A stretch of DNA of 59,974 nt, taken from an uncultured Dehalococcoidales bacterium. Its GTDB lineage: Bacteria > Chloroflexota > Dehalococcoidia > Dehalococcoidales > Fen-1064. This document shows positions 1,923-54,659 of the stretch, in pieces. How positions within the stretch are numbered: position 1 is the stretch's first letter; each line of letters starts with the position of its first letter. The stretch covers positions 3,053-63,026 of the forward strand of contig CAZTBG010000002.1 in NCBI GenBank assembly GCA_964611805.1, given 5' to 3'. The notes under the pieces are model-generated. The model did not search any database and had not been told where the DNA came from. It saw only the letters and a program-made list of their open reading frames with translations. The position numbers and the translations under genes are program-made.

Positions 1923-3187
1923 CAACTGCCGAGAGCAGGAGCGAGATAGATATACTCATTCGAACCTATCGACTGCTGGCCAGGATGAATCGAGCCCAGA
2001 ACAAAGGGGGTTCGAGCCATACCCTTTACTTCCAGCTGCTTGCTGACTATTATACCCGTGTCCGCAATGCCCATGAAGAAGGAAAACTACTGGCTGCCCA
2101 TACCGTTTTTTTCCCTACCGAAGTCCTCTATGCCATGGATATTGTACCCATGCACACTGAAATGACAACATGGCTCTCTGCCCTGTTCCTGCGGGAACAG
2201 GCAGGACTGCTAGCAAAAGGTGCCGAACTGGGCCTAGCCCCGGAAATCTGCTCCCCGCATCGAGGTGTCGCCGGTATCTTTGCCCTGAACGCCATCCCGC
2301 GACCAGACATCATCCTCTGGTCCAACCTCATTTGTGACAACACCGCCAAATCCGGTGAACTGATGATGGAACTGAGTGATAGTCCCGGCTTTTTCCTGGA
2401 CAATCCCTTCCAGAATTCCTCCGGCGAAATGGATTACCTGGTCGGTGAGCTGGAAGACATGGTGCACTTCCTTGAAGAAAGGTCCGGCAGGAAGATGGAC
2501 TGGGACAGGTTATCGGAAATGGTAGCTCGTACGAACGACGAGATTGACCTCTACCGGGAGATAGGTGAGCTGCGTAAGGCAGTACCCTCACCGATGTCAG
2601 TCATGGATGACCTAGAATTGCTTTCTGCAGACTACATGTTTCCCGGCCAGCCGGAAGCAATCCAGTACCTGACACATCTGCGGGACGAGTTAAAGGGGAT
2701 GGTGCAGGAAGGTAAGGGAGCCGTCACCAACGAGCGTTTCCGACTGATGACACTGTTCATCCCGCCCATGTACCTGATGAGTTACTTGGAACAGTTGTTC
2801 GAAGAGTACGGTGCGGTAAGCGTGGTGGAACCACTCTTCACCCTCTGGTCGGAAGGCTGGCTGGACCCCGCCCATCCACTGGAGAGCGTGGCCAAGAAGT
2901 CGTTTCTGATTCCCGAGAGAAGAAGCATGTACGGACCACTCGGTGAACAGGCCCTGCAGGATATTATTGATTGTGCCGAGCAATACAAGGTTGACGGAGC
3001 GATTTACTGGGCATTCATGGGCTGTCGTCATACCTGCGCTACTATCAAGGTCATCAAGGAAACACTGAGTGAAGTAGATGTCCCGATGCTTACCATCGAC
3101 TGCGATATTGTCGACCCGACCATTAACTCTGAGGAAGAAGTCCGAGAAAAGTTGGAGCAGTTTTTTGAGATGCTGGAGGACCGCTAG
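1919..3187 (+). CDS. 2-hydroxyacyl-CoA dehydratase / benzoyl-CoA reductase family, second subunit (BcrB/HgdA-like)
   Basis: 422-aa ORF; paralogous segment AAHTVFFPTEVLYAMDIVPMHTE; translationally coupled to previous gene. Confidence 0.75.
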   Translation: MTTAESRSEIDILIRTYRLLARMNRAQNKGGSSHTLYFQLLADYYTRVRNAHEEGKLLAAHTVFFPTEVLYAMDIVPMHTEMTTWLSALFLREQAGLLAKGAELGLAPEICSPHRGVAGIFALNAIPRPDIILWSNLICDNTAKSGELMMELSDSPGFFLDNPFQNSSGEMDYLVGELEDMVHFLEERSGRKMDWDRLSEMVARTNDEIDLYREIGELRKAVPSPMSVMDDLELLSADYMFPGQPEAIQYLTHLRDELKGMVQEGKGAVTNERFRLMTLFIPPMYLMSYLEQLFEEYGAVSVVEPLFTLWSEGWLDPAHPLESVAKKSFLIPERRSMYGPLGEQALQDIIDCAEQYKVDGAIYWAFMGCRHTCATIKVIKETLSEVDVPMLTIDCDIVDPTINSEEEVREKLEQFFEMLEDR

Positions 3188-3190
3188 TCT

Positions 3191-3982
3191 ATGCAGACGC
3201 TGGGCATTGACATTGGTAGTTTGAATATCAAGGCTGTAGTCCTCGACGAGGAAGGCCCCATCGGCACCAGTATCATGCCTCTGGGTGACGAGGTCGGAGA
3301 CAGTGTGCACGCCGCACTGGAAAAGGCAACGACGGAGGCCGGTCTGAGCCTGGATAGCTTGCCTGTTGTGGCTACCGGCGTCGGGGCAAAGACGATTTCT
3401 TTTGTTCCGCAACAGAAATCGATTACCACCTGCCTGGCCCGGGGTATCCAGTACCTCTTTCCATCGGCGCGCATGGCGATTGACATGGGAGCTGAAAGCA
3501 CCACCGTCATCAAGCTTAATGAGCGGGGCAGACTTACCGACTGGGCCAACCACGACAAATGCGCCTCGGGGACGGGGCTGTTTTTACAGCAGATGGCCAA
3601 GCTTATGGGCCTACCTCTGGACGAGATGGCACGTCTCTCACTGCAGGCTCGCGCACGTGCCGATATCACCAACACCTGCGCCGTTTTTGCTGAGTCAGAG
3701 GTGATTTCCCACGTGCACCGTGACCCTCCTACCCCAAAAGAAGATATCATCGCCGGCATTTACTATTCAGTGGTGAGCCGCATCATGTCCATGTGCAAAC
3801 GCGTCGGCATTACCCGGGAGGTTGCGGTCACTGGTGGTGCTGCCTTAAATGACGGCTTGGTAAATATCCTCGAACAAGAACTTGGCTTTGAGGTGCTGAA
3901 GCCTGCATCACCCCAGATTGTTGCGGCACTGGGCGCGGCGATTGTTGCCCGCGAAAACTCGGAGAAGGGGACCAAAAAATGA
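3191..3982 (+). CDS. BcrA/BcrD/HgdC-family ATPase (activase / ATP-binding electron-transfer subunit)
   Basis: N-terminal LGIDIGSLNIKAVV (ASKHA fold); cluster-bridging Cys motifs HDKCASGTGLFL and NTCAVFAESE. Confidence 0.85.
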   Translation: MQTLGIDIGSLNIKAVVLDEEGPIGTSIMPLGDEVGDSVHAALEKATTEAGLSLDSLPVVATGVGAKTISFVPQQKSITTCLARGIQYLFPSARMAIDMGAESTTVIKLNERGRLTDWANHDKCASGTGLFLQQMAKLMGLPLDEMARLSLQARARADITNTCAVFAESEVISHVHRDPPTPKEDIIAGIYYSVVSRIMSMCKRVGITREVAVTGGAALNDGLVNILEQELGFEVLKPASPQIVAALGAAIVARENSEKGTKK

Positions 3983-5046
3983 TTACTGCCGGCATAGATA
4001 TCGGCTCCCGTGCTGCCAAAGCGATTATTCTTAAAGACGGTGCTATTATTGCCTCCACCATTTGTGATACAGGACCAGAGAGCGTAAAGACCGCCTACGC
4101 GACAATAGACTCAGCTATGGAAGGCACTGGGCTTGCTCTTGATGATATTGACTACATTGTCGCCACTGGGTACGGGCGTGTCCTTGTCCCCTTTGCCAGA
4201 GAGAATGTCTCCGAGATTAGCTGTCATGCCCTCGGCATTAACTGGTATTACCCGTCGGTGAGGACCGTTCTGGATATGGGGGGACAGGACTGCAAGGCAA
4301 TCAGCGTCGATGCCGAAGGTCGTGTTACGAACTTCGTGATGAACGACAAATGCGCCGGCGGTACCGGCCGTTTCCTGGAAATGATAGCCGATGTACTGGG
4401 AACAACGCTCGGGGAAATCGGTGACCTGGCATTACAATCAAGACAGGAAATCCCCTTCAACACTATCTGTGCTGTCTTTGCCAAAACAGAGGCTATTGCC
4501 TACCTCCGGCAGGGCATCAGCCGCAGCGACATCCTGGCCGGGCTGAATGAAGCCATTGCTATCCGCTGCCTCAATCTGCTCAAGAAGGTGTCCATTGAGA
4601 AGGATTTCACTATTACGGGTGGCATCGCTAAAAATAAGGGCATGGTATCGAAAATTAGCGAGAAGGTCGGCCTGGAGCCACTGCTGGCCGAAGATCCGCA
4701 GCTCATCGGAGCACTCGGTGCCGCTCTCTTCGCCCAGCGAAAGTATGCAGGCAAAGAGTCTGTAAAAGAGGCCAGGATACAGTACGGCTATAACGACGGT
4801 ACCGGCGACTATTTCATTACCATTGACTTGGAGAAGTGCGATGGGTGTGGCGAATGTGTGTCTGCCTGCCCGGCATCTATCTTTGAGGTAGTCCACGAGG
4901 ACTCTCGTCAGTCCAAAGCCAGGGTAGCGGAAGAAGCCCGAAAACGCCTGTCAATACTATGCCCCGGTTATGACTTGTGCCACCGTACTCATGATAATAA
5001 CTGTCAGGTTGCTTGCCAGAAGGGTGCTATCAGCCTCAGCTGGTAA
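3979..5046 (+). CDS. Second BcrAD/HgdC-family ATPase fused to a C-terminal 4Fe-4S ferredoxin-type domain
   Basis: AGIDIGSRAAKAII, NDKCAGGTGRFLE, TICAVFAKTE; C-terminal CDGCGECVSACP plus a non-canonical second Cys group (CPGYDLC..C..C). Confidence 0.8.
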   Translation: MITAGIDIGSRAAKAIILKDGAIIASTICDTGPESVKTAYATIDSAMEGTGLALDDIDYIVATGYGRVLVPFARENVSEISCHALGINWYYPSVRTVLDMGGQDCKAISVDAEGRVTNFVMNDKCAGGTGRFLEMIADVLGTTLGEIGDLALQSRQEIPFNTICAVFAKTEAIAYLRQGISRSDILAGLNEAIAIRCLNLLKKVSIEKDFTITGGIAKNKGMVSKISEKVGLEPLLAEDPQLIGALGAALFAQRKYAGKESVKEARIQYGYNDGTGDYFITIDLEKCDGCGECVSACPASIFEVVHEDSRQSKARVAEEARKRLSILCPGYDLCHRTHDNNCQVACQKGAISLSW

Positions 5047-5490: not shown

Positions 5491-5928
5491 GTGGCAATAA
5501 ACCTTAATAAGCTCAGTGCTGACACGAGCCTGCCGGAGTTAAAGCGGCAGGTTACCCAGGAACACATCAACCTTTACGCCACCGCCAGCGGGGACTTCAA
5601 CCCCGTGCATATTGACCCGGAATTCGCCAAGCAAACCCCTCTGGGAGGCACGATTGCTCACGGAATGCTTGTCCTGGCTTACGTTTCCGAATTCATGACA
5701 ACCAGCTTCGGACAGGCTTGGCTGACCGGAGGTAGTCTCAGCGCTAGATTTAAAGCCCCGGCTCGCCCGGACGACACGATAACAGTTAACGGAAAGGTAA
5801 CAAATCTGCAAAAAAAAGGCGGAGTTGTCTCAGTCAGTTGCGACATCCTCTGCGTGAACCAGCAGGGTGAGCCGGTAATAGTCTGCGAGACGAAAGTGAG
5901 GGTGAAAACTAATGAAGATATCAGTTGA
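5491..5928 (+). CDS. MaoC-like (R)-specific hydroxyacyl dehydratase/hydratase (HadB-like catalytic subunit)
   Basis: Hydratase-2-type motif YATASGDFNPVHIDPEFA. Confidence 0.75.
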   Translation: MAINLNKLSADTSLPELKRQVTQEHINLYATASGDFNPVHIDPEFAKQTPLGGTIAHGMLVLAYVSEFMTTSFGQAWLTGGSLSARFKAPARPDDTITVNGKVTNLQKKGGVVSVSCDILCVNQQGEPVIVCETKVRVKTNEDIS

Positions 5929-6925
5929 TGCCATGGGCGGCGATTTCGCCCCCGAAGAAATCATCAAGGGGTCGGTTGCAGGAGCCCGGGAGCACGGTGT
6001 TGGTATTATCCTGGTCGGGCCGCAGGAGCTCATCCAGACCGAGTTGAAAAAATACGACACTTCCGGACTCGACGTCGAGATAGAGCATACCGACGAGTAT
6101 CTGCTCGAAGGGGAGCATCCCGCCTACGCCATGCGTAGAAAGAGAAATGCCTCAATAATGGTCGCCGCCAGGCTGGTTGGAGAGGGGAAAGCGGCTGCAG
6201 CAGTTGGCGCCGGACCGACAGGGGGTGTTTTTGCCGCTGCTGTTCAGGCGCTGGGCATTATGGAAGGTCTGGCCCGTCCCGTTATCGGGGGGCAGTTCCT
6301 AGGATTTACTCCCGAGACAATTATGATTGACCTGGGCGGCAATGTCGACTCTCGCCCGGACCAGCTCCTAGATTTCGGCATCATCGGTATGGTCTACGCC
6401 CGTAAATGGATGAATATCCCCGACCCCACGATTGCTCTGGCCAGCAACGGAGTTGAGGAAGGAAAAGGAAATGAGGTGGTTCGTGAAACCTACGAACTTT
6501 TCAAAAACTCCGGCCTTAACTTCATAGGAAATGTGGAGGGTAATGACATTGCCAATGGTAAGGCTAATGTTATTGTCTGCGACGGTTTTGTGGGTAACCT
6601 GGTCGCCAAGTTCTGCGAAGGGCTGGGTGAAGTTACCTCGCGGTGGCTCAGCGATAGGTTACAGGACAAGCTGCCGGGGAGTGAAATAGGAGAGCTAATC
6701 GCCGACCTGAAAAGGGCGATGATTCCCGCTGATGCCGTGGGTGGCGGCCCGCTGTGGGGGATAAATGGCGTTGTATGCAAGGCGCACGGCCGCAGTAAAG
6801 CCCCCGAGGTCGCCAGCACAATAGGTACGGCCAAGAGGGCAATCGAAATAGACCTGGTGGGTACCTTCAAAACGGAGTTAGCTGCTGTGAAAAGCACTAT
6901 GAATATACCGGACCCGAACGCTTAG
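5912..6925 (+). CDS. plsX: Phosphate acyltransferase PlsX
   Basis: MKISVDAMGGDFAPEEIIKG N-terminus typical of PlsX; position upstream of acpP. Confidence 0.9.
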   Translation: MKISVDAMGGDFAPEEIIKGSVAGAREHGVGIILVGPQELIQTELKKYDTSGLDVEIEHTDEYLLEGEHPAYAMRRKRNASIMVAARLVGEGKAAAAVGAGPTGGVFAAAVQALGIMEGLARPVIGGQFLGFTPETIMIDLGGNVDSRPDQLLDFGIIGMVYARKWMNIPDPTIALASNGVEEGKGNEVVRETYELFKNSGLNFIGNVEGNDIANGKANVIVCDGFVGNLVAKFCEGLGEVTSRWLSDRLQDKLPGSEIGELIADLKRAMIPADAVGGGPLWGINGVVCKAHGRSKAPEVASTIGTAKRAIEIDLVGTFKTELAAVKSTMNIPDPNA

Positions 6926-14757: not shown

Positions 14758-15282
14758 ATGAAAGTATATTTCGTAACTCACGCAACTACTGAAGACAATG
14801 AAGCCGGGATTGCCTCCGGCTGGAATGATACAAGGTTATCCCAGATGGGCATTCAGCAGGCGGAAGGTCGAAGAGAGACCTTTCGGGACATTAAGATAGA
14901 TCTGGTTTACTCCTCTGACCTACGCCGGGCTATTGATACCGCCAGAATAGCATTTAATGAAAAAATATCTGTTATCACTGACCGCAGGCCCAGGGAAATC
15001 AATTACGGCGACTTGAACGGTAAACCAGTTGATTTGGTTGATCCAACGAATAAAAAGTGGATAGATGAATCTTTCTCCAATGGGGAGAACTATCAACAGG
15101 CTCTGGCAAGAATTCAGAATTTTTGCTTGCAATTAAAAAGGAATCACCCAGAGAAGACAATTCTCATTATTGGCCATCGCGCCACTCAATTCGGACTGGA
15201 CACATTTACTGACAAAAGAACGATAGAAGAGTGTCTAAGCGTACCTTTTGTGTGGAAACCATATTGGGAATATAATCTATAA
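14758..15282 (+). CDS. Histidine phosphatase (phosphoglycerate mutase-like) family protein with atypical first motif
   Basis: Family layout (SSDLRRAIDTA, IIGHRATQ), but the N-terminal motif reads THA instead of RHG. Confidence 0.7.
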   Translation: MKVYFVTHATTEDNEAGIASGWNDTRLSQMGIQQAEGRRETFRDIKIDLVYSSDLRRAIDTARIAFNEKISVITDRRPREINYGDLNGKPVDLVDPTNKKWIDESFSNGENYQQALARIQNFCLQLKRNHPEKTILIIGHRATQFGLDTFTDKRTIEECLSVPFVWKPYWEYNL

Positions 15283-18316: not shown

Positions 18317-19351
18317 ATGATGAACGAACATCACAAACTAGATGAATTAAAAACCAGAGAGACTTGGTTTGACAAAGTGCCAAAGGTGGAACTACACATA
18401 CACCTTGAAGGAGCTATTCCACATTATGCCTTGTGGGAGCTCATCCAGAAGTATGGCGGAAAGTCGTCTGTCCCCAGTATCGAGGTTCTTAGAAGCAGGT
18501 TTCAGTATCGTGATTTTCCTCACTTTATTGAGACTTGGGTTTGGAAAAACCAGTTCTTACGGGAATACGAAGATTTCACTTTCATTGCTGAGGCAGTAGC
18601 TAGAGACCTCACAAGCCAGAATGTTCTTTATGCTGAGACTATTTTTGCTCCTTCAGAATTCACCGTACATGGATTGGAAACGCAGAAACTAGCCGAAGGT
18701 ATCCGCATTGGTCTTTCTAAGGTGCCAGAAATAGAAGTTGCATTGATAGCTGACCTGGTTCGCGACCGCGAATTGGATAATGCAGCTAAAAACCTGGCAG
18801 AAATCAATGAGGTAAGAGAACTCGGAATCATCGGTGTCACGATCGGTGGTTCGGAACAGGATTACCCTCCTGAACCTTTCGCTGATATTTACGAAAGAGC
18901 CAGGCAGATGGGCTTTCATACCAGCGCGCATGCCGGGGAAGCTGCCGGCCCAGAGAGCGTGTGGGGAGCGATCAGGAGCCTCAAAGTAGAAAGAATCGGG
19001 CATGGTACAAGGGCCATCGAAGACCAGTCCCTGGTTGACTATATTGCCGAGCACCAAATTCCCATTGAAATCTGCCTTATATCCAATTTGAGGACTGGCA
19101 CAGTTGATAATATCGAGAATCATCCTGTACGGCACTTCTTCGATAAAGGAATCCCTATCTCAATCAACACTGATGACCCAAAGATGTTCGGTACTTCATT
19201 GGCTGAAGAGTATCATGTACTCGAAACAAAACTTGGCTTTTCTCGTGAGGAGACACGGACAATTATTCTCCAAGGTATAGGGGCATCCTGGCTTCCGGAG
19301 GATAGGAAACGCCAGTTGGTTCAAAGGTTTCGTAGCGAACCAGTATGGTAA
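18317..19351 (+). CDS. add: Adenosine deaminase
   Basis: VELHIHLEGAI, SAHAGE, RIGHG, SINTDDP metal/active-site motifs. Confidence 0.85.
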   Translation: MMNEHHKLDELKTRETWFDKVPKVELHIHLEGAIPHYALWELIQKYGGKSSVPSIEVLRSRFQYRDFPHFIETWVWKNQFLREYEDFTFIAEAVARDLTSQNVLYAETIFAPSEFTVHGLETQKLAEGIRIGLSKVPEIEVALIADLVRDRELDNAAKNLAEINEVRELGIIGVTIGGSEQDYPPEPFADIYERARQMGFHTSAHAGEAAGPESVWGAIRSLKVERIGHGTRAIEDQSLVDYIAEHQIPIEICLISNLRTGTVDNIENHPVRHFFDKGIPISINTDDPKMFGTSLAEEYHVLETKLGFSREETRTIILQGIGASWLPEDRKRQLVQRFRSEPVW

Positions 19352-19423: not shown

Positions 19424-20236
19424 ATGGAAAAAGGCATAATACACCCCGCAATTGTCTATGGTACCGTAAGGTCAAAAAGGGTACCCGGGAACTCTTTAGG
19501 ACTAAATATTTTGCCACAGGAGTACAAGATATGCTCCTTTAACTGCGTTTATTGTGAGCGTGGTCGTACCAAGGTATTCGCTGATGACTTAGCAAACAGA
19601 AAAGCAGATCTTCCCTCACCGGATGATTTTGAGCGAGCATTAGAATCGGCACTACGACAAAGCAAACATATTGATGCCTTAACATTCTCTGGTAACGGGG
19701 AACCCACACTTCATCCACAATTTGAGGAAATAGTTGATATCGCATTGCGACTAAGGAATAAATTCATTCCGCAAGCAAAGGTAGGCATCCTCTCTAACTC
19801 ATCAACCTTAGAAATTGACGGCGTGCTCCGGGGATTGTCCAAACTGGATTATAGGATGATGAAACTTGATGTCGGTGACGTCGAAACGTTCAACAAAGTC
19901 AACCGCCCTCAACCAGGAGTAGAATTCCAAGCGATAGTGGAAAGGTTAAAGACGCTTGAGAATATCATTATCCAAACCATGTTCATAAACGGAAACACAC
20001 AGAATATAGATGACCAAGGAATAAGGGCATGGACTAGCCGTATAGGCGAAATATCGCCAGATAATGTTCAAATCTATTCCCTCCACAGGCCTCCTGCTGA
20101 ACCGTCAATCAGGGAAGTGCCCGCAGAAAGACTCGAACAGATCGCTGCCTCGGTAACGAAACATACAGGAGTCCCGGTAGAGGTAATTGTACGCGATTCC
20201 CCCTATCGCGATAGGAAACGAGAATACTGGAAATAG
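19424..20236 (+). CDS. Radical SAM protein, function unknown
   Basis: CSFNCVYC (CxxxCxxC) cluster motif near the N-terminus. Confidence 0.75.
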   Translation: MEKGIIHPAIVYGTVRSKRVPGNSLGLNILPQEYKICSFNCVYCERGRTKVFADDLANRKADLPSPDDFERALESALRQSKHIDALTFSGNGEPTLHPQFEEIVDIALRLRNKFIPQAKVGILSNSSTLEIDGVLRGLSKLDYRMMKLDVGDVETFNKVNRPQPGVEFQAIVERLKTLENIIIQTMFINGNTQNIDDQGIRAWTSRIGEISPDNVQIYSLHRPPAEPSIREVPAERLEQIAASVTKHTGVPVEVIVRDSPYRDRKREYWK

Positions 20237-20360
20237 AAGGCCACAGTCGTTCTTATTGAGATTTTACAATTGGGCGCTTTATTACATTAAGCAGCCATCA
20301 CGGGAAGCCCATTGACATTATCATTTTCACTACTGTATTATTCAACAAATTAGAATATGT

Positions 20361-20443
20361 ACTAGGGGAGCTGAAAGGCTGAGAGGTCCCGTGTGGGGCG
20401 ACCCTTATTACCTGATCTCGGTAATGCGAGCGTAGGGAAGTGA
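20361..20443 (+). promoter_or_regulatory. TPP (THI-box) riboswitch aptamer
   Basis: CUAGGGGAGC..GGCUGAGA..ACCCUUAUUACCUGAUCUCGGUAAUGCGAGCGUAGGGAAG is colinear with the E. coli thiM aptamer as recalled. Confidence 0.9.
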
Positions 20444-20452
20444 AAAACCTGA

Positions 20453-20495
20453 AACCAGAAGACTGATCACATCCCAGCTTCTGGTTTTTCTTTTC
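20453..20495 (+). terminator. Intrinsic terminator serving as the riboswitch expression platform
   Basis: AACCAGAAG (20453-20461) pairs with CTTCTGGTT (20478-20486), followed by TTTCTTTTC. Confidence 0.8.
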
Positions 20496-20531
20496 ACCAC
20501 TCGAACTGGCATTTGGCGAAGGAAACCGTAG

Positions 20532-21326
20532 ATGAGCGCAAGAACGGGCGATGGTTCTATTGATTATGACCAGGTCAGCCAGGTTTATGATACTAGCAGG
20601 GTGGCCAATGCCGAAACAGTTGGGAAATTCATCCGACTGCTTCAAATCTCCGGTGATTCAGTAGTTCTCGACATGGGATGTGGCACCAGCAACTATACCG
20701 ATGCGCTAAGGCGAGTAGCTAAAAGCATTGTAGGGATAGACTCGTCCGTAGGCATGCTTGAGCAAGCACGGGCCAAGTTTACTGACTTACTACTCATCTC
20801 AGGTGATATCACGAGCATGCCCTTCAAGCCAGAGGTCTTCGATGCTTCGTTTGCCGTTCAAGTGCTGCACCATGTCAAAGAGAAGGAGCGGTTTCTAAAG
20901 GAAGCCTGTCGCGTGCTGCGAAAAGGGGCATACATTGCAATACATTCCTGTTCTCACCGACAAATGCGGGTATTCTGGTCCTATCACTACTTCCCAAAGG
21001 GGCTTCAGGTAGACTTGGCGCGAATGCCCGACTCAAAAGAGATTGTATTGTTACTTACCAGAGCCGGATTCTCAAACATTGGCGTTGAGACGTGCTATCA
21101 CGATGTTGTTATTGCAAATGAGGCACCAGAACGCTATCTGGATAAGAACTACCGTGACAGCATTTCTACTTTTGCCTTCCTTAGTGAGGAAGACATAGAA
21201 TTAGGCTGTGAGAAGATACGGGAAGACATTGCTTCTGGTGCTGTTGAGAACGTTGTTCGAGAGTCTGAGGTGAAAGTCACGAACAATGTTGGCGGTTCGT
21301 GCATTATCTATGGACGGAAAACCTAG
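20532..21326 (+). CDS. Class I SAM-dependent methyltransferase
   Basis: Motif I VLDMGCGTSNY; first gene after the riboswitch terminator. Confidence 0.85.
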   Translation: MSARTGDGSIDYDQVSQVYDTSRVANAETVGKFIRLLQISGDSVVLDMGCGTSNYTDALRRVAKSIVGIDSSVGMLEQARAKFTDLLLISGDITSMPFKPEVFDASFAVQVLHHVKEKERFLKEACRVLRKGAYIAIHSCSHRQMRVFWSYHYFPKGLQVDLARMPDSKEIVLLLTRAGFSNIGVETCYHDVVIANEAPERYLDKNYRDSISTFAFLSEEDIELGCEKIREDIASGAVENVVRESEVKVTNNVGGSCIIYGRKT

Positions 21327-22615
21327 CCGGCATACTCCGTACGGAGGAACGAAAAGCCGTGGAAATTTCTGACCCGCAGTATGAAGTGGAAATAAGGTGT
21401 CATTTCGCAGACCAAAATGAAGCGTACCAAAGGCTCCCATTCTTTCGCGAAAGCGTCTATAGCGAAGCCACGTGGAGCAGTGGGATCTATGGCCTGTCAC
21501 TGTTCAAATCAGGCGAGTTACTTCGAGTAGGCGAGGTTCATATCAGTGGCGAAACCAGAATCTTTCTCCGTTGGAAGAGTCGGGATACCGGCACATTTGC
21601 CAATATTCGTATTGAGATCGGCGACGAGATCACTAACGGTATCAGGGATAGCCTTGTCTTGCGCCGGCTAGGGGGTCAGTCTGGTTTTCTGACAGCCCAA
21701 CAGGTGATAGAGGAATTGGAGCGGCTTGGACATCACCGCTTCATGGGATTTGAGGGGCACGACTGGTACGGGAAATATGAGCCGCTGAACGTCGAGATAA
21801 AGATGATGCGCTGTCCCGTTCTGGAGTGGCCTCTCATGGTCGAGTTCGAGAAGATTGCACGCACTGAAGAAGAGGCGCGCCAATTTGAGAAAGACCTCTA
21901 CGAGTTGAGCCGCCAGCTTAGGCTTGAGAACTGTCTGATGAAAGAGGAACCCCCGACCCAGTTGTACGCAACGGTTTTCGGTCGGGAAGGGTTGATACAA
22001 TCACCAAACGCATGGAACAGTGTCTACAAGCAACAAGGGAGGGTTTTCACTGAACCCCACGAAGACATGCCCAGTATAGTCCAATTGTTGAAGGATGGAG
22101 GGGCAAGCACTGTCCTAGACTTAGGAAGCGGCACCGGTCGACACGTGATATATCTAGCCAGAAACGGCTTTTCTGTCTTCGGGTTAGACAACTCCCCGGC
22201 GGGGATTGAACTGACTCGCCGATGGCTGGCCGATGAGGGTTTGACCGCTGACTTGCGATTGCAGAGCATGGCTGAGAAGCTACCCTATGAAGACGCGTTC
22301 TTTGACGCCATTATCTCGGTGCAGGTGATCCATCACGCAGATAGCGCGACGATAAGGAAGATTGTTCAAGAGCTAACCCGAGTTCTTAAAGAGGGCGGAT
22401 TTCTTTTCGTCACTGTGCCCAAGCTGAAGAACCAAGGAGTGCATTTTGAACAACTCGAACCCAATACCTTCATTCCTTTGGATGGACCTGAAAAGGGGTT
22501 ACCCCACCATTACTTCAGCCCAGAGGAGTTACGAGAGGTATTTGGTCACTTTGATGTAGCGGATATTCATCTTGACACGGTCAATCACTACTGCCTATCA
22601 GCCGTTAAGCTGTAG
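21299..22615 (+). CDS. CYTH-like (triphosphate tunnel) domain fused to a class I SAM-dependent methyltransferase
   Basis: N-terminal YEVEIRCHF (ExExK-type), later LLRV / RIFLRWK / IRIEIGDE / LMVEFEKI strands; C-terminal VLDLGSGTGRH. Alternative GTG start at 21359 follows GGAGG. Confidence 0.65.
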   Translation: MHYLWTENLAGILRTEERKAVEISDPQYEVEIRCHFADQNEAYQRLPFFRESVYSEATWSSGIYGLSLFKSGELLRVGEVHISGETRIFLRWKSRDTGTFANIRIEIGDEITNGIRDSLVLRRLGGQSGFLTAQQVIEELERLGHHRFMGFEGHDWYGKYEPLNVEIKMMRCPVLEWPLMVEFEKIARTEEEARQFEKDLYELSRQLRLENCLMKEEPPTQLYATVFGREGLIQSPNAWNSVYKQQGRVFTEPHEDMPSIVQLLKDGGASTVLDLGSGTGRHVIYLARNGFSVFGLDNSPAGIELTRRWLADEGLTADLRLQSMAEKLPYEDAFFDAIISVQVIHHADSATIRKIVQELTRVLKEGGFLFVTVPKLKNQGVHFEQLEPNTFIPLDGPEKGLPHHYFSPEELREVFGHFDVADIHLDTVNHYCLSAVKL

Positions 22616-22616
22616 A

Positions 22617-22796
22617 CAACGGCAAGGCAATGAAGTTACCAGACTACACAAGAAGAATGGGGACTTCACGACTCTTGAAGAAGCAAGGGTCTTGATAGAG
22701 CAATGGCGAAGGGAATATAATCAGGCACGCCTGTAGAATTCTCTCGTATACCAACCTCGAGCTCCTGAGGCTGTCTTAACCAAGATAATGACCTAA
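22617..22796 (+). pseudogene. 3' relic of an IS3/IS481-type DDE transposase (integrase-core C-terminus)
   Basis: Single frame reads ..FTTLEEARVLIEQWRREYNQARL*NSLVYQPRAPEAV.., matching the ..WRxxYNxxRPHSSLGYxxPAPEA tail; in-frame TAG at 22734; no N-terminal part. Confidence 0.7.
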
Positions 22797-22837: not shown

Positions 22838-23635
22838 TTGATTAACCTATATTTTGAAAAGATGGACAAATTCAGTCCTAATATGTTCAAGGCAGAACTG
22901 GCAAAGTATTACGATGTCATGCATCAGTACCGTAATTACGACAAGGAATGCAGCTTTGCCAATAATCTCATTAAAAGAAAGGTTCCCGAAGCGAGAAGGG
23001 TCTTGGATATCTGCTGCGGAACTGGTGAACACGCTACTAGGATGGCTCATTTGGGCTATGAAGTAACAGGAGTTGACCAATCTCAAGATATGCTGGATAT
23101 TGCTGTGGATAAAGTAGTAGCGTCAGGTCTTTCGATTGATTTCATTTGTGCGGATGTATTTGAATTGGGAATTAAAGAGGAGTTCGAGGTTGCTTACTGT
23201 CTTGGTTACACGTTTCTTTATATGACGACATACCCAGATGTCAGGAGGTTCCTTAAGGCTGTAAAGAACGCTTTATTGCCAAGGGGACTATTTATAGTTG
23301 ATTTTATAAATGGACCTTCACTAATCAAAGATTTCAATAAAGACGAATTTATCTACCGTCACAAGAGCGTAACGATTAGACAGCATGACCGGTGGTCCTT
23401 GGATAACAGAAGAGGAGTGAAACATTTAGACTTCGCGTACGAGATTATTGATGACGACGGCAGAGTTCAGAAGATATCTGCAGAAGAAGATTTGAGAATA
23501 TTTTATGATGATGAAGTTCAGACTTTGTTATCCAGTTGCGGCTTTAGCGATGTTGAGTCATTTGGCGATTATAATTTAGAACGAAATAGAGCCGATAACC
23601 CGTATATATTGATTGTTTCAGGGAAGAAAGCTTAA
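22838..23635 (+). CDS. Class I SAM-dependent methyltransferase
   Basis: Motif I VLDICCGTGEH; AT-richer than neighbours; ATG 22862 is an alternative start. Confidence 0.8.
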   Translation: MINLYFEKMDKFSPNMFKAELAKYYDVMHQYRNYDKECSFANNLIKRKVPEARRVLDICCGTGEHATRMAHLGYEVTGVDQSQDMLDIAVDKVVASGLSIDFICADVFELGIKEEFEVAYCLGYTFLYMTTYPDVRRFLKAVKNALLPRGLFIVDFINGPSLIKDFNKDEFIYRHKSVTIRQHDRWSLDNRRGVKHLDFAYEIIDDDGRVQKISAEEDLRIFYDDEVQTLLSSCGFSDVESFGDYNLERNRADNPYILIVSGKKA

Positions 23636-23640
23636 CATTT

Positions 23641-23668
23641 GGGCGTTTTGTTGAGCGCCCCCATTTTT
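23641..23668 (+). terminator. Weak intrinsic terminator candidate
   Basis: GGGCG (23641-23645) pairs with CGCCC (23656-23660), then CCATTTTT. Confidence 0.35.
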
Positions 23669-23737: not shown

Positions 23738-24403
23738 ATGGAAGAGACTATGTCTTGGGATAATGAGTATAGACATCATAAACGCGTTTGGGGAGAGGGA
23801 CCAAGCGCATTGGCCTCTTTTGCCGTGGATTACCTGCAGGAATTACAGTTATACCAGAAGACCCTTAGCATCTTGGACATCGGATGCGGTTACGGCCGTG
23901 ACGCGGTTTATCTATGCCAACATACCGATTGCACCATAGTAGGTATCGACAATTCACAAGGAGCCATTGAGATGGCCAGGGGTACTCGCCCCAAGGAATA
24001 TATTGGCAGAATAGACTTTAAGTTCCTCGATTTTACTCGGCTTCCTGTAAACGATAGATACGACGTGGTTTTCGCATCCAATCTCTATCAATTACTGAGG
24101 CCAGAAGAGAGGGCTGCATTTAGGAAGATATCAAGAAGGGTTCTAAGTCCGAATGGACTGTTGTTTCTGAGTACATTATCTACGAGTGATCCTGAGCATT
24201 ATGGTAAGGGTACCGCCGCTGTGGGTGATATTAACTCATTCGTGGATGAGAAGTATCTGCACTTATGCACGTGCGGAGAACTAGAGCGGGAATTTAGTTT
24301 TCTGAACATCAAGGAACTGAAAGAGCACGAATATTATGAGCCTCGTGCTACCGGTAGAACTCATCACCATATCTCATGGCTGTTGGTAGGACATAAAGAG
24401 TGA
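23738..24403 (+). CDS. Class I SAM-dependent methyltransferase
   Basis: Motif I ILDIGCGYGRD. Confidence 0.8.
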   Translation: MEETMSWDNEYRHHKRVWGEGPSALASFAVDYLQELQLYQKTLSILDIGCGYGRDAVYLCQHTDCTIVGIDNSQGAIEMARGTRPKEYIGRIDFKFLDFTRLPVNDRYDVVFASNLYQLLRPEERAAFRKISRRVLSPNGLLFLSTLSTSDPEHYGKGTAAVGDINSFVDEKYLHLCTCGELEREFSFLNIKELKEHEYYEPRATGRTHHHISWLLVGHKE

Positions 24404-50871: not shown

Positions 50872-52389
50872 TTAGCCACGCAGCCTGGGCAAGAGGCCAG
50901 GCACTTGCTGATATATGATGTCCACCGTTGCTTTGTCTATGTGGCATGGTGGCAACGATAGTATTTCGTCCATCCGTTCCCTGGCACGAAGTAGAGTCTC
51001 GTCTGTCATACCCTTACTTTCGAAGGGATACGGGGGGGCTATCTCGCCGGAGCGCAGGGCCTTACGGACAAAGCGCATGTAAAGCTTGTGTGACGTACCC
51101 ATGACTCTTCTTACTTGCTCCAGGCATTCCGTGATTGAATCGTCTGTAAAATCTGCCTTCTGAACAAATCTCTTGACCATTTCTATGTGTGTATTGTCGA
51201 GTATGGCTTGCACTGGGCAAAAGGTATTGGTCCGTTCTAGCAGACCAAAGGCATAGTGGATGTATTGTGCTCCTGACAGCGCCACCAGGATATGTGAGAA
51301 TAGCCTCTCTACTAGGGCCTGTACGCCGGGCACCTCCACATCAGAAACACCGGCGGTAGAATAGCATGGCAGGCCATAGTAACGGGCCATTTGAACACAA
51401 TCTATGTTGTACTGACTGAACTCGGGGACTCCGTAGGAGTCATTAAGGTCATCTAGGCGGGTTCTAACAGGCACGCTACCATATAGCACCGGTGCCCCTT
51501 TGCTTACCAGCTGGGCCAGAGCTATTCCCACCAGAATTTCGGCGTTTATCTGGGATACCATACCCTCTTCCGTAATCGGAGCAGTCGAGCCACCCTGCGG
51601 GGAACTCGAAATTACCAGCGGAATCTTTCTCCTGGCTATTTCTATGGCTTTCTGAGAAGTATCGTCCACAAGCTGAAGAGGACTCTTAATTGTACAGGTG
51701 ATAAAAGAAATAATGGGATTTTCGCTTAGCTTTTCCTGCCCCCCGGCAATAATCTCTGCCATCTTGAGGACGTTTTCGAGCTGACTGAGCTCGGTAAGAC
51801 CGGACATCACATGTTTGGTAGTGTTGTTCAGGGAGGCAAAGAACTTGTTGACATCCTTGTTGGTGTCGTTAATATCGTCATCCTGAATATTTACTGTGCG
51901 TAGGAAGCTGTCCCATGAGTCGAGGTGCTCACAGAGATGTGCTGCCTGTGCCAGTCTGGCCACGGTACCTTTCTGGATGGTGAACGTAGGAAAAAGCATT
52001 TCCTTACTGGAATCTCGTTTGCTGATAAAAGGCTCTATATCCAGGTCGAGCCAGTTATTGGCCTCGGAGCCAGAAGCAAAGTGTATCCTGGGCTCACTCC
52101 CGTCAAGGACGAGGCAGTTTTCTTCGTCGCGGGCTCCCAGTTTCACTACCTTCGGTGTTGCTGATACCGCTCCTGATACTATTTTTTCGGGTATCCTGAC
52201 TAGCCAGCTGTCTTCCTGAGCGCCTGGCTCAACCTCAGCGCCGTTATCGCCAAAGACCTGAGCCGCATCTCTGTTAAAACAGATAATACCCGGGTCAAGC
52301 AGGATGCTCAGCGAAGCCTGATGTATCTTCTCTATCTGCTCTTCAGTCAGGCGTCGGTATGGTTCTACAAGCACGCCATTTCTAGCCAT
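50872..52389 (-). CDS. MttB-superfamily methyltransferase, non-pyrrolysine
   Basis: 505-aa uninterrupted ORF with MttB-family N-terminus (LTEEQIEKIHQASLSILLDPGI); corrinoid operon context. Confidence 0.85.
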   Translation of the reverse strand: MARNGVLVEPYRRLTEEQIEKIHQASLSILLDPGIICFNRDAAQVFGDNGAEVEPGAQEDSWLVRIPEKIVSGAVSATPKVVKLGARDEENCLVLDGSEPRIHFASGSEANNWLDLDIEPFISKRDSSKEMLFPTFTIQKGTVARLAQAAHLCEHLDSWDSFLRTVNIQDDDINDTNKDVNKFFASLNNTTKHVMSGLTELSQLENVLKMAEIIAGGQEKLSENPIISFITCTIKSPLQLVDDTSQKAIEIARRKIPLVISSSPQGGSTAPITEEGMVSQINAEILVGIALAQLVSKGAPVLYGSVPVRTRLDDLNDSYGVPEFSQYNIDCVQMARYYGLPCYSTAGVSDVEVPGVQALVERLFSHILVALSGAQYIHYAFGLLERTNTFCPVQAILDNTHIEMVKRFVQKADFTDDSITECLEQVRRVMGTSHKLYMRFVRKALRSGEIAPPYPFESKGMTDETLLRARERMDEILSLPPCHIDKATVDIIYQQVPGLLPRLRG

Positions 52390-52398
52390 AATTCTCTC

Positions 52399-53208
52399 CT
52401 AAGTTATCAGAGTACCTTGCCGGTAGGCCCTGATGTACCGCCGGCATTGCGGGTCCTTTTCAGTGAGAATGTCGGCAGCTTTAATAAGGCTCATTGCTCT
52501 GGTATCGAGCGGGTCGAGGATAACAGCATCCAGCCCGGCATAGGCTGCCATTAGCAAAAATGCCCGGTTTACCAGCTTTCTGCCGGGTAATCCATAGGAA
52601 ATATTGCTCAGGCCCATCACCGTTTTTGCTTTTGGATACTGTGACTTAATCCGCTCAATGGTCTTCAGTGTTGTTAATGCCTGTCCGGAATCAACACCTA
52701 CGGGAAGCACCAGCGGGTCGAAATAGACCTGCTCTTCATTGATGCCGAACCGCGCCAGGTGTGTCATTATTACCTCGCAGGCAGCCAGTCTCGCTTCCAC
52801 GCCGCGGGGTATTCCTTCGGCACTCATCGCCAGTGCCACCAGCCGTACCTGATGCCCGATTTTAAGGTGGCCTATTGCCTCCAGCTTTTCTGGTTCGGCA
52901 TTGACGGAGTTAATTACCAGTTCTTCCTTGCCATACTTTTGCATGCCTGCTTCTATGACTTCAGGGATATCACTGTCAATTGCCAGTGGCTTGTCGGTGG
53001 CTGCTTGGACAGTTTCTACCGCCCATTCCATGGTTGCCATTTGTTCCTGTCTAGTCTGTTTGGCCGTGCCAACATTCACGTCAATGAAGTCAGCACCGGC
53101 GTCAGCCTGGGCCTTTGCCAATCCCGTGATGTACCCTTCGTTCCTGCCTATGATAGCTTCAGCAACGGGCTTGCTGGAAGCGTTAATTTTTTCTCCGATT
53201 ACCAGCAT
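52399..53208 (-). CDS. Methyltetrahydrofolate:corrinoid methyltransferase (pterin-binding domain)
   Basis: MLVIGEKINASS.., ADFIDVNVG, LAIDS, GLSNISYGLP pterin-binding barrel motifs. Confidence 0.8.
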   Translation of the reverse strand: MLVIGEKINASSKPVAEAIIGRNEGYITGLAKAQADAGADFIDVNVGTAKQTRQEQMATMEWAVETVQAATDKPLAIDSDIPEVIEAGMQKYGKEELVINSVNAEPEKLEAIGHLKIGHQVRLVALAMSAEGIPRGVEARLAACEVIMTHLARFGINEEQVYFDPLVLPVGVDSGQALTTLKTIERIKSQYPKAKTVMGLSNISYGLPGRKLVNRAFLLMAAYAGLDAVILDPLDTRAMSLIKAADILTEKDPQCRRYIRAYRQGTLIT

Positions 53209-53213
53209 ATATT

Positions 53214-54659
53214 TCAGTCCACTATGCCTTTTATTTCCGTGAGTATCTGCTGCCTGACTGTCTCTGGAAGGTGGTGGTTACTCTCAGCTATAAGCTGCCG
53301 TGCAATTTCTCCTGCTCTCTGCCAGGTAATCTTACTTCCCTTACTTTCCCAGTCTGCCCGGCTGTCTCTATCACTCAGGGTAGGCAGATAGTGCTCAGTG
53401 CGCATGAAACGCCTGGTGTGCTTGGCGGTGGCAAAATTACCCCCTGGCCCCACCTCTTTGATGAGGTCGAATGCCAGCGTCTCGTCATCTACCCTGATAC
53501 CTTCGACTGCCCTCATCACCATACCCAGTATCTCATTATCGATAACGAGCTTCTCGTAACATACTGTCATAGCGAACTCCATGAGCCCGGCGGCATCATG
53601 GATGAAGTTGGACCCTGCCAGTGCACAGAGCAAACCGGTCAGGGCTGATTCGTAACCGCTCTGGGCATCCAGTACCTTGGAGTCTGTCATACCGCCGGTG
53701 GCATAGAATGGGAGCTTATAGAATTGCGCCATCTGGGCCCCGGCGGCATTAATCAAGCCCATCTCAATCGAACCGGCCAGATAGCCAAGGTTAGATAAGT
53801 CCGTGCTGGTGGCCACTGAGCCGAAGATAACCGGTGTCCCCGGGTTTACTATCTGAGCGAGCATAACACCCATCAGTGAGTCGACTGTCTGTATTACCAG
53901 ATTCCCGCCCAGCGTAACCGGTGAAGTGGCCCCACATAGAGGCTCGGCAGGACACACCAGCGGGATACCGCTCTCGGCAATAATAACCACCAGGTCTCCG
54001 TAGTGAGCGTCCAGCTTCATGGGGCTCATGCTACAGGCTATCATGGAGATAATTGGTCGTTCTCTGAGAGCTACCGCGGAGCCAGCCACAATCTCGGCCA
54101 TGCGTATCACCTGTTTCACCCCCTCGGCCGTGTAGACGCCACCCATGATGTGTTTGGTGCTGTTGTCCAGCCCGGCAAAGAAGCGGTTTACATCCACCTG
54201 CTCCACAGGCAGTTCGTTGGGATAGGTGGAAAGCATCAATAGATGGATATTATCTAGGCGGTCAACCAGTTTGGCGATTTGCCTCACGTCTTCTAGGATG
54301 GCGAGACGTCTTTGGTCGGTATCTGGTTCATAGATGTTGAGGGCGGTTCCACCGGTGCCGGCATATACGCGACTCCCTCCGAGGAGAATGTCATGCTTGT
54401 CTTCCTGCCCACAAAGCCGGACCTCGGAGGGGGCCATATTTATCAGTTCTATTGCTTTCTCACGAGGTAGATGTACCAGCCGCCTTTCCCTGTCCACCTG
54501 GCCTCCGGCTTTCTGAAAAAGCCCCAAGGCTGTCTCTGAGTTTACCTGAAAGCCTACTTCCTCAATCAACCGCATGGCGGTTTCATGGACTTTTTTTACT
54601 GACTCTTCGGAAAGCGGTTTGTAGCTACCTCCAATAACGCCTTTACGAATATGTTTCAT
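53214..54659 (-). CDS. MttB-superfamily methyltransferase, non-pyrrolysine
   Basis: 481-aa uninterrupted ORF; LSEESVKKVHETAMRLIEEVGF N-terminus; paralogue of 50872..52389. Confidence 0.85.
   Translation of the reverse strand: MKHIRKGVIGGSYKPLSEESVKKVHETAMRLIEEVGFQVNSETALGLFQKAGGQVDRERRLVHLPREKAIELINMAPSEVRLCGQEDKHDILLGGSRVYAGTGGTALNIYEPDTDQRRLAILEDVRQIAKLVDRLDNIHLLMLSTYPNELPVEQVDVNRFFAGLDNSTKHIMGGVYTAEGVKQVIRMAEIVAGSAVALRERPIISMIACSMSPMKLDAHYGDLVVIIAESGIPLVCPAEPLCGATSPVTLGGNLVIQTVDSLMGVMLAQIVNPGTPVIFGSVATSTDLSNLGYLAGSIEMGLINAAGAQMAQFYKLPFYATGGMTDSKVLDAQSGYESALTGLLCALAGSNFIHDAAGLMEFAMTVCYEKLVIDNEILGMVMRAVEGIRVDDETLAFDLIKEVGPGGNFATAKHTRRFMRTEHYLPTLSDRDSRADWESKGSKITWQRAGEIARQLIAESNHHLPETVRQQILTEIKGIVD

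Follow-up and report, generated by a model that had tools for sequence, protein, structure and literature searches.

Few elements in bacterial genomes point to gene function as reliably as TPP riboswitches; time and again, the genes behind them have proved to encode a missing thiamine transporter or an enzyme of salvage or damage control. To our knowledge, described thiamine pathways contain no methyltransferase apart from that of bacimethrin synthesis, and bacterial members of the CYTH/triphosphate-tunnel (TTM) group are largely without known roles. The bacimethrin enzyme, BcmC, is an O-methyltransferase whose product is a toxic HMP analogue. A survey of TPP regulons reported 20 orthologue groups for biosynthesis and 19 for transporters, and methyltransferases go unmentioned in its main text (PMC3766115). 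For genes of unknown function downstream of TPP riboswitches, a role in salvage or detoxification has been argued (PMC11223231). The sole described case that we found of a SAM methyltransferase accompanied by Nudix and HAD genes behind a putative TPP riboswitch is the bacimethrin/thiaminase I operon of Paenibacillus and Clostridium botulinum, with the order thiM-thiD-thiE-glycosyltransferase-thymidylate synthase-methyltransferase-Nudix YzgD-thiaminase I-HAD (PMC5627462).

In this study, a 59,974-nt stretch of a contig from an uncultured Dehalococcoidales bacterium (hereafter the window) was analyzed. It contains a predicted unit of about 2.4 kb, read as a promoter, a riboswitch with its terminator, and two genes (Table 1). 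Judged from these sequence features, a non-canonical gene set is indeed placed under TPP-riboswitch control.

Table 1 Features of the predicted riboswitch-controlled module in the window
Feature	Position	Strand	Evidence or description
Sigma-70-like promoter (predicted)	20312..20341	+	TTGACA 20312-20317, 18-nt spacer, TATTAT 20336-20341
TPP riboswitch aptamer (THI element)	20354..20455	+	RF00059, 67.9 bits, E 3e-11
Putative intrinsic terminator (expression platform)	20452..20494	+	10-bp stem 20452-20461 / 20478-20487, 16-nt loop, U-tract 20485-20494
Gene 1, predicted class I SAM-dependent methyltransferase	20532..21326	+	264 aa; Methyltransf_11, E 8e-24
Gene 2, whole, predicted TTM-methyltransferase fusion	21359-22615	+	418 aa
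Gene 2 N-terminal domain, predicted divergent CYTH/triphosphate-tunnel (TTM)	21359..21988	+	Family profile and structure model
Gene 2 C-terminal domain, predicted TehB/MduS-like class I SAM methyltransferase	22007..22615	+	Methyltransf_25/11, E ~1e-21; TehB, 3e-9
End of conserved module, then fossil C-terminus of IS3-family transposase	22644..22735	+	Window/L001 homology break; peptide match

Riboswitch and the adjoining methyltransferase gene

The preliminary description of this DNA had recognised a THI-box aptamer at 20361-20443. A scan with RF00059 bore this out, yielding a slightly longer match that covered model positions 1-105 end to end with a score well above the gathering score of 54.3. 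In the alignment to the RF00059 consensus, the CUGAGA pyrimidine-sensor core and the pyrophosphate-sensor core (ACCUGAUC..UAAU..GCGUAGGGA) were both intact, and by score and cores the aptamer was confirmed as a genuine member of the family. Aptamers were also present upstream of gene-1 orthologues at loci L001, L019, L021, L023, L102, L111/112 and L113/114, and helices P1-P5 were preserved in seven aligned homologues. In an RNAalifold count, the helix that follows CUGAGA showed compensatory changes (35:45, CG/AU), and changes in P1 were visible by eye in the aligned aptamers. The putative promoter matched the sigma-70-like consensus at 11 of 12 positions; both hexamers were unchanged in L001, while the sequence further upstream was unrelated between L001 and the window. 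TPP would be expected to bind this RNA and to switch expression off.

The hairpin and U-tract that the preliminary description had placed 37 nt before gene 1 were recovered at that distance from the ATG, with a stem of 10 bp and not the 9 bp given there. Its arms were read from the sequence as AAACCAGAAG pairing with CTTCTGGTTT, followed by TTTTTCTTTT up to 20494. The hairpin was present in the minimum free energy (MFE) fold, and it overlapped the aptamer match at the 3' end; a simple terminator scanner overlooked it because of its 16-nt loop. In each of the seven further sequences examined, the aptamer was followed by an equivalent hairpin. Across the eight sequences the arms covaried between two types, CCAGAAG/CTTCTGG and CCAAGGG/CCCTTGG, and a run of at least four U residues followed the hairpin in every sequence except L102, where the tract was broken (GGUCUUAUU). 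By these features the hairpin is predicted to serve as an aptamer-coupled expression platform. When truncated transcripts were folded for their MFE structures, no antiterminator pairing was consistent across riboswitch subtypes; pairing of 20435-20443 (GGGAAGUGA) with 20468-20476 (UCACAUCCC) may be put forward as a speculative candidate in the window.

The gene following the riboswitch was identified, as had been proposed, as a class I SAM methyltransferase. Its Pfam score of 84.6 bits was above the cut-off, and it carried the glycine-rich SAM-binding loop LDMGCGTS. The closest solved structures were 3ege and phosphoethanolamine N-methyltransferases. More than 179 homologues were found, the best 120 of which were 59-100% identical to it. 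A metagenome scan added true orthologues only at L021-L023; the remaining hits were mostly generic methyltransferases, since one search pattern was the SAM-binding loop itself. Both the window and L112 have an adenosine deaminase gene in the neighbourhood of gene 1.

Domain architecture of gene 2 and limits of the module

The start of gene 2 is most likely the GTG at 21359 rather than 21299. This GTG stands 9 nt after GGAGGA and 32 nt past the gene-1 stop, and it fits the 418-aa length of the called homologues P0001 and P0003, the close homologue P0002 having been called nine residues longer. With this start the two genes, previously described as overlapping, probably do not overlap.

The N-terminal part of gene 2 had been assigned to the CYTH family on its EVEIR motif, which is located at 21383-21397 (residues 9-13 of the 418-aa protein). 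The motif stood, but the Pfam CYTH profile failed: the window domain gave no Pfam matches even at E<=10, and a phmmer search of the PDB returned only a hint of 2een (E 0.6) and nothing at the sequence level to thiamine triphosphatase (ThTPase). A profile built from 32 sequences of the TTM family reached the CYTH protein PH1819 (2een) at E 4.6e-4 with motif residues aligned, and two of the 32 members reached PF01928 at 9e-5. The family is small, with about 84 representatives in 1.8 billion proteins. An AlphaFold model of the domain based on the 32-sequence alignment reached a pLDDT of 93.8 and a pTM of 0.88, compared with a pLDDT of 38.6 for the full 418-aa protein with five sequences. In a Foldseek search with the domain model, the top 24 matches were all CYTH/TTM proteins, led by 2een (E 3e-11, TM 0.81 on the target) and with SaTTM, AtTTM3, ThTPase and class IV adenylate cyclase among the other best matches; Mediator Med18/Med20 chains were among the weaker ones. 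The ThTPases (3tvl, 5a64) ranked 16th and lower, behind archaeal TTMs, at E ~5e-7 and 15-19% identity. Residues E9, R13, R56, K73, E86, K148 and E162 were invariant in the family alignment, and R84 and E164 invariant or nearly so. The ExExK motif reads E9-x-E11-x-R13, with the lysine replaced by an invariant arginine, and most of the conserved acidic and basic residues were aligned with counterparts in PH1819. By way of the family profile and the structure model only, a triphosphate-tunnel fold is confidently predicted for this domain.

The second methyltransferase domain that the preliminary description saw fused in gene 2 was confirmed. Residues ~250-370 matched Methyltransf_25/11 with 76.6 bits, above the cut-off, and contained the SAM-binding loop LDLGSGTG. 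A standalone orthologue, 76.5% identical to this domain, adjoined the gene-1 orthologue in L108, and in P0011 the same type of methyltransferase was fused to an inorganic pyrophosphatase domain.

Homology between the window and L001 ended about 28 nt past the gene-2 stop, beyond which the peptide FTTLEEARVLIEQWRREYNQARL* matched annotated IS3 family transposases. The promoter and terminator were kept in L001, and both flanks differed between the two loci. Close relatives of the module were absent from the plasmid collection, so it does not correspond to any known plasmid module. We rejected an origin in phages or defence systems, as PHROGs gave generic domain matches only and PADLOC gave no specific defence-protein match beyond the domain level (the methyltransferase domain to mad2, NUDIX to PDC-S07).

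The riboswitch-methyltransferase linkage recurs with variable partners

Both the recurrence and the variability of the gene linkage were shown by comparing 15 distinct contexts of gene-1 orthologues. An RF00059 element was found in 8 of them, the window included, and was located directly upstream of the orthologue except in L023, where it preceded a NUDIX-MT-gene1 array. No thi-family Pfam domains were recorded among the called genes of the loci with gene calls, no known thi gene could be made out among the ORFs listed for L019, L021 and L023, and neither a thi gene nor a thiamine transporter occurred near the window operon to anchor its function. The riboswitch, found in 8 of 15 contexts with no thi gene, is therefore not regarded as linked to the methyltransferase by accident. 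The preliminary description had allowed that relatives might carry, behind the riboswitch, a thi gene deleted here; none was seen, and the same methyltransferase family was present in all eight contexts. Most riboswitch-bearing orthologues belonged to one clade with the two covarying terminator types, so these related loci do not represent eight independent events.

In the other seven contexts, among them L106 (72% identity) and L108 (68% identity), a TPP aptamer was missing even at E<=1. These contexts were unrelated, comprising toxin-antitoxin islands and positions downstream of a RACo gene or of radical SAM genes, which argues that the gene-1 protein has a role not always needing TPP control.

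A TTM partner was present in five contexts (window, L001, L113/114, L019 and L101) and a NUDIX partner in four (L023, L102, L106/107 and L111/112), and the two were never found together in one of the 15 contexts. The order was methyltransferase followed by NUDIX in L102, L106/107 and L111/112. Further partners included HAD proteins in L019 and L102, His_Phos_1 in L101 and the gene-2-type methyltransferase in L108; in L103, a nucleoside 2-deoxyribosyltransferase-family gene and a HAD gene lay 2-5 kb upstream. The best NCBIfam names, all generic and below cut-off, were MutT-like for the NUDIX partners and PhnX-like or ribazole-phosphatase-like for others. Standalone members of the TTM family lacked the riboswitch at 18 of 19 genomic loci; they adjoined NUDIX, P-loop kinase or CyaB-like genes and had no conserved neighbours beyond close relatives. 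Given these varying partners, the module is centred on the methyltransferase, and the CYTH domain is a predicted phosphohydrolase that other families can replace. The earlier interpretation is thereby upheld for a TPP-controlled set of non-thi genes and revised in two respects: the CYTH domain, taken as the centrepiece, is accessory, with NUDIX in its place in other contexts and mostly no riboswitch in its standalone family, and the proposed tie to thiamine triphosphatase holds at the superfamily level only.

Proposed function and relation to known systems

On balance, we lean towards the operon being a TPP-repressed module whose target is a phosphorylated thiamine-related compound and whose purpose is salvage or detoxification. 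With ample TPP, the aptamer would fold, the terminator would form and transcription would halt ahead of gene 1; when TPP is scarce, read-through would allow expression of both genes, the first encoding a class I methyltransferase of the small-molecule type and the second a predicted triphosphate-tunnel phosphohydrolase joined to a TehB-like methyltransferase. Their most likely job would be to strip the di- or triphosphate from such a compound and to methylate it, either salvaging a degradation product or neutralising a toxic TPP analogue at a time when low TPP leaves the cell at its most vulnerable. These enzyme activities and this substrate class are what we infer from the sequences. A bolder version, to which we give little weight, is a new branch of thiamine metabolism, in which a TTM or NUDIX protein and the methyltransferase, both repressed by TPP, would act on a thiamine nucleotide or analogue, recovering the vitamin or disarming the analogue by methylation; candidates may include thiamine triphosphate (ThTP), adenosine thiamine triphosphate (AThTP), thiamine-capped RNA, and the diphosphate of an oxy-, oxo- or thiothiazolone-thiamine antivitamin. 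If true, this would be the first thiamine-linked physiological role for bacterial CYTH proteins.

Here, the riboswitch points to a conserved methyltransferase accompanied by predicted TTM or NUDIX phosphohydrolases that replace one another. Should the link be biochemical, it would reveal a new step, whether of salvage, detoxification or antivitamin chemistry, in uncultivated bacteria whose closest named relatives are Chloroflexota MAGs, and would offer a divergent CYTH/TTM subfamily a class of physiological substrates that can be tested. As the candidates are short soluble proteins and an RNA of roughly 150 nt, the hypothesis is directly testable in vitro.

A role unrelated to thiamine is unlikely but deserves some weight: by analogy with TTM RNA triphosphatases and the NUDIX protein RppH, which are paired with methyltransferases, the module might serve nucleotide sanitation or the processing of RNA 5' triphosphate ends, with TPP as a mere read-out of metabolic state. 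The MutT-like NUDIX partners, the genes adjoining standalone TTM members, the adenosine deaminase genes near gene 1 in the window and L112, and the many gene-1 orthologues without a riboswitch would all fit. Against this, the TPP riboswitch regulons described so far, to judge by the survey's main text, are made up of genes for thiamine biosynthesis and transport (PMC3766115), and maintenance of the aptamer across the clade by compensatory changes favours a specific thiamine link.

Hydrolysis of ThTP or AThTP to TPP under TPP scarcity, by the TTM domain here and by NUDIX proteins elsewhere, is quite unlikely. Both folds could in principle cleave such compounds, mammalian thiamine triphosphatases do appear among the structural matches, and OFF-switch logic suits a TPP-replenishing activity; yet the archaeal TTMs PH1819 and SaTTM are the better matches, the riboswitch link is mostly absent in the standalone TTM family, and the conserved methyltransferase at the core of the module would be left unexplained.

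Antivitamin production, with gene 1 as a functional analogue of BcmC, phosphohydrolases trimming a nucleotide precursor and expression at low TPP suppressing competitors, is also suggested by analogy and appears very unlikely. A methyltransferase, Nudix and HAD lie beside the bacimethrin genes in Paenibacillus, and reportedly in C. botulinum, in an operon thought to be TPP-riboswitch-controlled (PMC5627462); the methyltransferase-then-NUDIX order of three contexts and the upstream genes of L103 would be in keeping with this. But genes for BcmB (thymidylate-synthase-like), BcmA (glycosidase), ThiD and thiaminase I adjoin none of the riboswitch-positive loci, and gene 1, 57-65% identical between phyla and set in contexts of a housekeeping kind, would be an unusual enzyme of secondary metabolism. 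Lastly, the idea that the riboswitch was orphaned when a thi gene was deleted or rearranged, for which the IS3 fossil abutting the 3' end and the differing flanks of the window and L001 might speak, is effectively refuted by the recurrence of the junction in eight contexts and two diverged riboswitch subtypes without a thi gene, the fossil itself lying downstream of gene 2 and not between riboswitch and gene 1.

Set beside canonical TPP operons (thiC, thiM, thiT/ykoEDC) with transcription-terminator platforms, the window shares the RF00059 aptamer and the series of promoter, aptamer, intrinsic terminator and controlled genes, presumably as an OFF switch. In contrast, its class I methyltransferase and TTM-methyltransferase fusion are of no described thi biosynthesis, salvage or transport type. 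Compared with the bacimethrin operon, the module has no BcmA, BcmB, ThiD or thiaminase I genes, whereas that operon has no TTM domain. The predicted gene-2 domain matches the beta-barrel tunnel of PH1819 (2een), SaTTM (7ns9, Sulfolobus), AtTTM3, CyaB and mammalian ThTPase, and most of the acidic and basic residues on its strands align with the CYTH motifs; it differs in falling below the Pfam threshold, in the invariant arginine at the ExExK lysine, in an additional conserved C-terminal EEPPTLLY helix and in its fusion to a methyltransferase. The oarX-fmnO genes and the Nudix enzymes of thiamin damage are likewise accessory, found in some genomes only and TPP-riboswitch-linked, with an unknown or damage-control role (PMC11223231). 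OarX, however, belongs to the short-chain dehydrogenases and its gene clusters with known thi genes, whereas the module of the window stands alone and is built from other enzyme families.

The TPP riboswitch leader and its operon

On sequence and comparative criteria, a leader of promoter, TPP aptamer and terminator was shown to precede a two-gene operon. The RNA was as the preliminary description had it: the aptamer scored 67.9 bits (gathering score 54.3), its ligand-contacting cores CUGAGA and ACCUGAUC..UAAU..GCGUAGGGA were intact, and the terminator hairpin, which overlaps the aptamer match at its 3' end, was followed by TTTTTCTTTT and, after 37 nt, by the ATG of gene 1. A simple terminator scanner made no call at this hairpin because of its 16-nt loop, and no antiterminator pairing could be defined with confidence when one was sought. 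If the leader works as terminator-type TPP riboswitches are known to, bound TPP would stabilise P1 and let the terminator form, and the operon would be on only at low TPP.

Gene 1 matched no NCBIfam model at or above its cut-off, and its closest solved relatives were 3ege and the phosphoethanolamine N-methyltransferases. The latter act on a phosphorylated amine, a kinship that may give a weak hint of the substrate type. If gene 2 is taken as its longest ORF, from GTG 21299, it overlaps gene 1, as first proposed. Two of three close homologues (P0001 and P0003) are called at 418 aa, matching GTG 21359, while the third (P0002) is called 9 residues longer; these calls, and GGAGGA 9 nt 5' of GTG 21359, make a 32-nt gap between the genes most likely instead. 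The second methyltransferase domain attributed to gene 2 was recovered as a TehB/MduS-like C-terminal half.

Coordinates of features in the window and in related loci (L numbers) from other genomes or metagenomes
Locus	Feature	Position	Strand	Remarks
Window	His_Phos_1 gene	14758-15282
Window	Adenosine deaminase/radical SAM neighbours	18317-19351, 19424-20236
Window	Promoter	20312-20341		TTGACA-18-TATTAT, near-consensus; twelve bases 5' of aptamer match
Window	TPP aptamer	20354-20455	+	RF00059 (Rfam), whole model, E 3e-11
Window	Terminator hairpin	20452-20461/20478-20487		AAACCAGAAG paired with CTTCTGGTTT; tract to 20494
Window	Gene 1	20532-21326		264 aa, class I SAM methyltransferase, Methyltransf_11 E 8e-24
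Window	Gene 2 (most likely)	21359-22615
Window	IS3-family transposase fossil	22644-22740		C-terminus, FTTLEEARVLIEQWRREYNQARL then stop
Window	Promoter-like site	22692-22721		TTGATA-18-TATAAT, inside fossil
Window	Class I SAM methyltransferases	22838-23635, 23738-24403	+
Window	Terminator-like hairpin	23641-23660
Window	Second MttB paralogue	50872-52389
Window	Pterin-binding protein	52399-53208
Window	MttB-family ORF	53214-54659	-	481 aa, PF06253 E 1e-105
Window	PYLIS_3 (Rfam)	53591-53690	-	60.9 bits
Window	B12-dependent methionine synthase activation domain protein	54666-55343
L003	CyaB-like CYTH gene/TTM-like gene	3464-3982/3983-4627
L005	Group II intron D1-D4 (RF02003)	1273-1412, 4694-4833, 5967-6106		about 100 bits each
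L019	TTM-like gene	3866-4287		frameshifted
L102	HAD gene	5798-6497		frameshifted
L106	Radical SAM neighbour	3804-4964
L109	RACo-type gene/gene-1 orthologue	3394-4977/5001-5801
L112	Adenosine deaminase	2546-3322

Recurrence of the riboswitch-gene linkage

A contig from another assembly (L001) carries the promoter, aptamer, terminator and both genes as in the window, with 83-89% amino-acid identity. The homology starts roughly 60 nt 5' of the promoter and stops about 28 nt past the gene-2 stop, the flanks beyond are unrelated, and in the window the IS3-family fossil begins exactly at its 3' end; the riboswitch and the two genes thus form a module with distinct borders, about 2.4 kb long. Searches gave no support for a defence-system, phage or plasmid origin of this module.

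Gene-1 orthologues with obtainable DNA represented 15 distinct contexts, the window included. RF00059 lay directly 5' of the orthologue in the window, L001, L113/114, L021, L019, L111/112 and L102, and 5' of a NUDIX-methyltransferase-gene 1 operon in L023, whereas the aptamer was absent, even at E<=1, from the other seven (L022, L101, L103, L104/105, L106, L108 and L109/110). The positive loci fell mostly in one clade of the gene-1 protein tree; because they are related by descent, these eight contexts are not eight independent acquisitions. Two riboswitch subtypes were distinguished, with compensatory changes between their terminator arms (CCAGAAG/CTTCTGG versus CCAAGGG/CCCTTGG); covariation was also seen in P1 and in the helix that follows CUGAGA. 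Among the positive loci, those with gene calls had no thi-family Pfam domain on record, and the ORF lists of those without gene calls contained no recognisable known thi gene. The check proposed earlier, whether relatives keep behind the riboswitch a thi gene that was deleted here, thus came out negative. The linkage is not accidental and has been kept by selection.

Several other features of these neighbourhoods were observed. The two methyltransferases just 3' of the module, one glycine/sarcosine-N-methyltransferase-like and the other TPMT/TehB/MduS-like, probably escape riboswitch control because they lie outside the unit shared with L001; counted with genes 1 and 2, they bring the window to four methyltransferase domains in 4 kb. 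An adenosine deaminase occurs near gene-1 orthologues in two loci (window versus L112, 66.5% identical), and radical SAM genes, with no mutual relatedness detected, adjoin gene 1 in the window, L104 and L106; either functional linkage or synteny would account for these neighbours. Among riboswitch-negative loci, the orthologues of L101 and L103 lie within islands where toxin-antitoxin genes abound (HicAB, HigB/HTH, PIN). In L109 and L110, the orthologue follows by only 24 nt a gene of the type of RACo, the reductive activator of corrinoid proteins, a hint that this methyltransferase family also works in another functional context. Elsewhere in the window, PYLIS_3, the pyrrolysine insertion element of mttB, was matched inside an uninterrupted MttB-family ORF; the match probably picks up conserved coding sequence of an mttB whose product lacks pyrrolysine. 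The flanking genes are tabulated.

The CYTH domain and the partners of gene 1

The N-terminal 210 residues of gene 2 gave no Pfam match, even at E<=10, and so did not pass the CYTH-profile check proposed beforehand; the CYTH assignment made earlier therefore stands through its relatives and its fold, not through a direct Pfam hit. An exhaustive HMMER search yielded a small family of 84 representatives, mostly standalone and about 210 aa long, two divergent members of which matched PF01928; a 32-member profile reached PH1819 (2een), a CYTH protein, at E 4.6e-4, in an alignment that matched up most of the motif residues. The AlphaFold model from the 32-member alignment was confident (pLDDT 93.8, pTM 0.88), and its top 24 Foldseek matches were all CYTH/TTM (triphosphate-tunnel) proteins, including PH1819 (3e-11), Sulfolobus SaTTM, AtTTM3, class IV adenylate cyclases and mammalian thiamine triphosphatase; only the weaker matches included Mediator chains (Med18/Med20). 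Charged tunnel residues are kept in the family (E9, E11, R13, R56, K73, R84, E86, K148, E162 and E164), with the ExExK lysine replaced by an invariant arginine. Profile, PF01928 matches, modelled fold and tunnel residues together mark it as a divergent TTM domain, probably an active phosphohydrolase. The idea of a thiamine triphosphatase would draw on superfamily membership only.

The partners of gene 1 varied. The TTM domain is fused to the second methyltransferase in the window and L001, standalone in L113/114 (78% identical), frameshifted in L019, and standalone beside a histidine phosphatase, without a riboswitch, in L101. Further partners are a NUDIX hydrolase (L023, L102, L106/107, L111/112), a HAD hydrolase (L019, L102) and a standalone orthologue of the gene-2 methyltransferase domain (L108, 76.5%). 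TTM and NUDIX occurred together in none of these contexts, a pattern that non-orthologous displacement of one activity, di- or triphosphate cleavage, would produce. The frameshifts in L019 and L102 are either a sign that these accessory genes are decaying or errors of assembly. In the homologue P0011 (320 aa), a gene-2-type TehB-like methyltransferase domain (63% identical) is fused to an inorganic pyrophosphatase domain, so that this methyltransferase has two phosphohydrolase-type N-terminal partners; in P0012 it is recorded with an SCP2 domain.

Across 19 genomes (Dehalococcoidales, "Chloroflexia" MAGs, Latescibacterota, Bacillota and Desnuesiella massiliensis), the standalone TTM family almost never has a riboswitch, L019 being the sole exception, and its neighbours vary among NUDIX, P-loop kinase and canonical CyaB-like CYTH genes. 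In L003, a Chloroflexia MAG, a CyaB-like gene (TIGR00318 at E 3e-11, below cut-off) lies directly 5' of the divergent TTM-like gene, and three adjacent genes of the P0014 contig encode a standalone TTM-like protein, a short methyltransferase and a CYTH protein of PF01928, so that CYTH-type proteins of two kinds occur as a pair. In L005, a Latescibacterota MAG, three group II intron matches surround the TTM-like gene within 5 kb. Given the varied partners and the near absence of riboswitches from the standalone family, the gene-1 methyltransferase is the core of the riboswitch-controlled module and the CYTH domain a predicted accessory phosphohydrolase. The interpretation first offered is thus partly supported: a non-canonical module under TPP control exists and recurs in relatives, but the CYTH domain does not define it.

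Proposed role and comparison with known systems

The domain families and the genes found together suggest that the operon products act on a phosphorylated small molecule, which they would both dephosphorylate and methylate. To our knowledge, every step of canonical thiamine biosynthesis has a known enzyme. It has been argued that unidentified genes behind TPP riboswitches should be salvage or detoxification genes (PMC11223231). On these two grounds we favour a role in salvaging a thiamine degradation product or disarming a toxic TPP analogue, which offers a directly testable lead for thiamine-metabolism specialists and CYTH enzymology.

One precedent was found for a methyltransferase behind a TPP riboswitch. 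In the bacimethrin/thiaminase I operon, a putative TPP riboswitch precedes genes for a methyltransferase (BcmC), a Nudix protein (YzgD) and a HAD hydrolase (PMC5627462), and a role of that type for the module is a minority alternative; however, the operon also includes thiM, thiD, thiE, a glycosyltransferase and a thymidylate-synthase homologue (PMC5627462), all missing here. A 2013 survey of TPP regulons reported thiamine biosynthesis and transporter groups only, the word "methyltransferase" being absent from its main text (PMC3766115). Set beside these systems, the module does not amount to a new class; what is new is the regulon of a classical riboswitch, together with a divergent CYTH subfamily.
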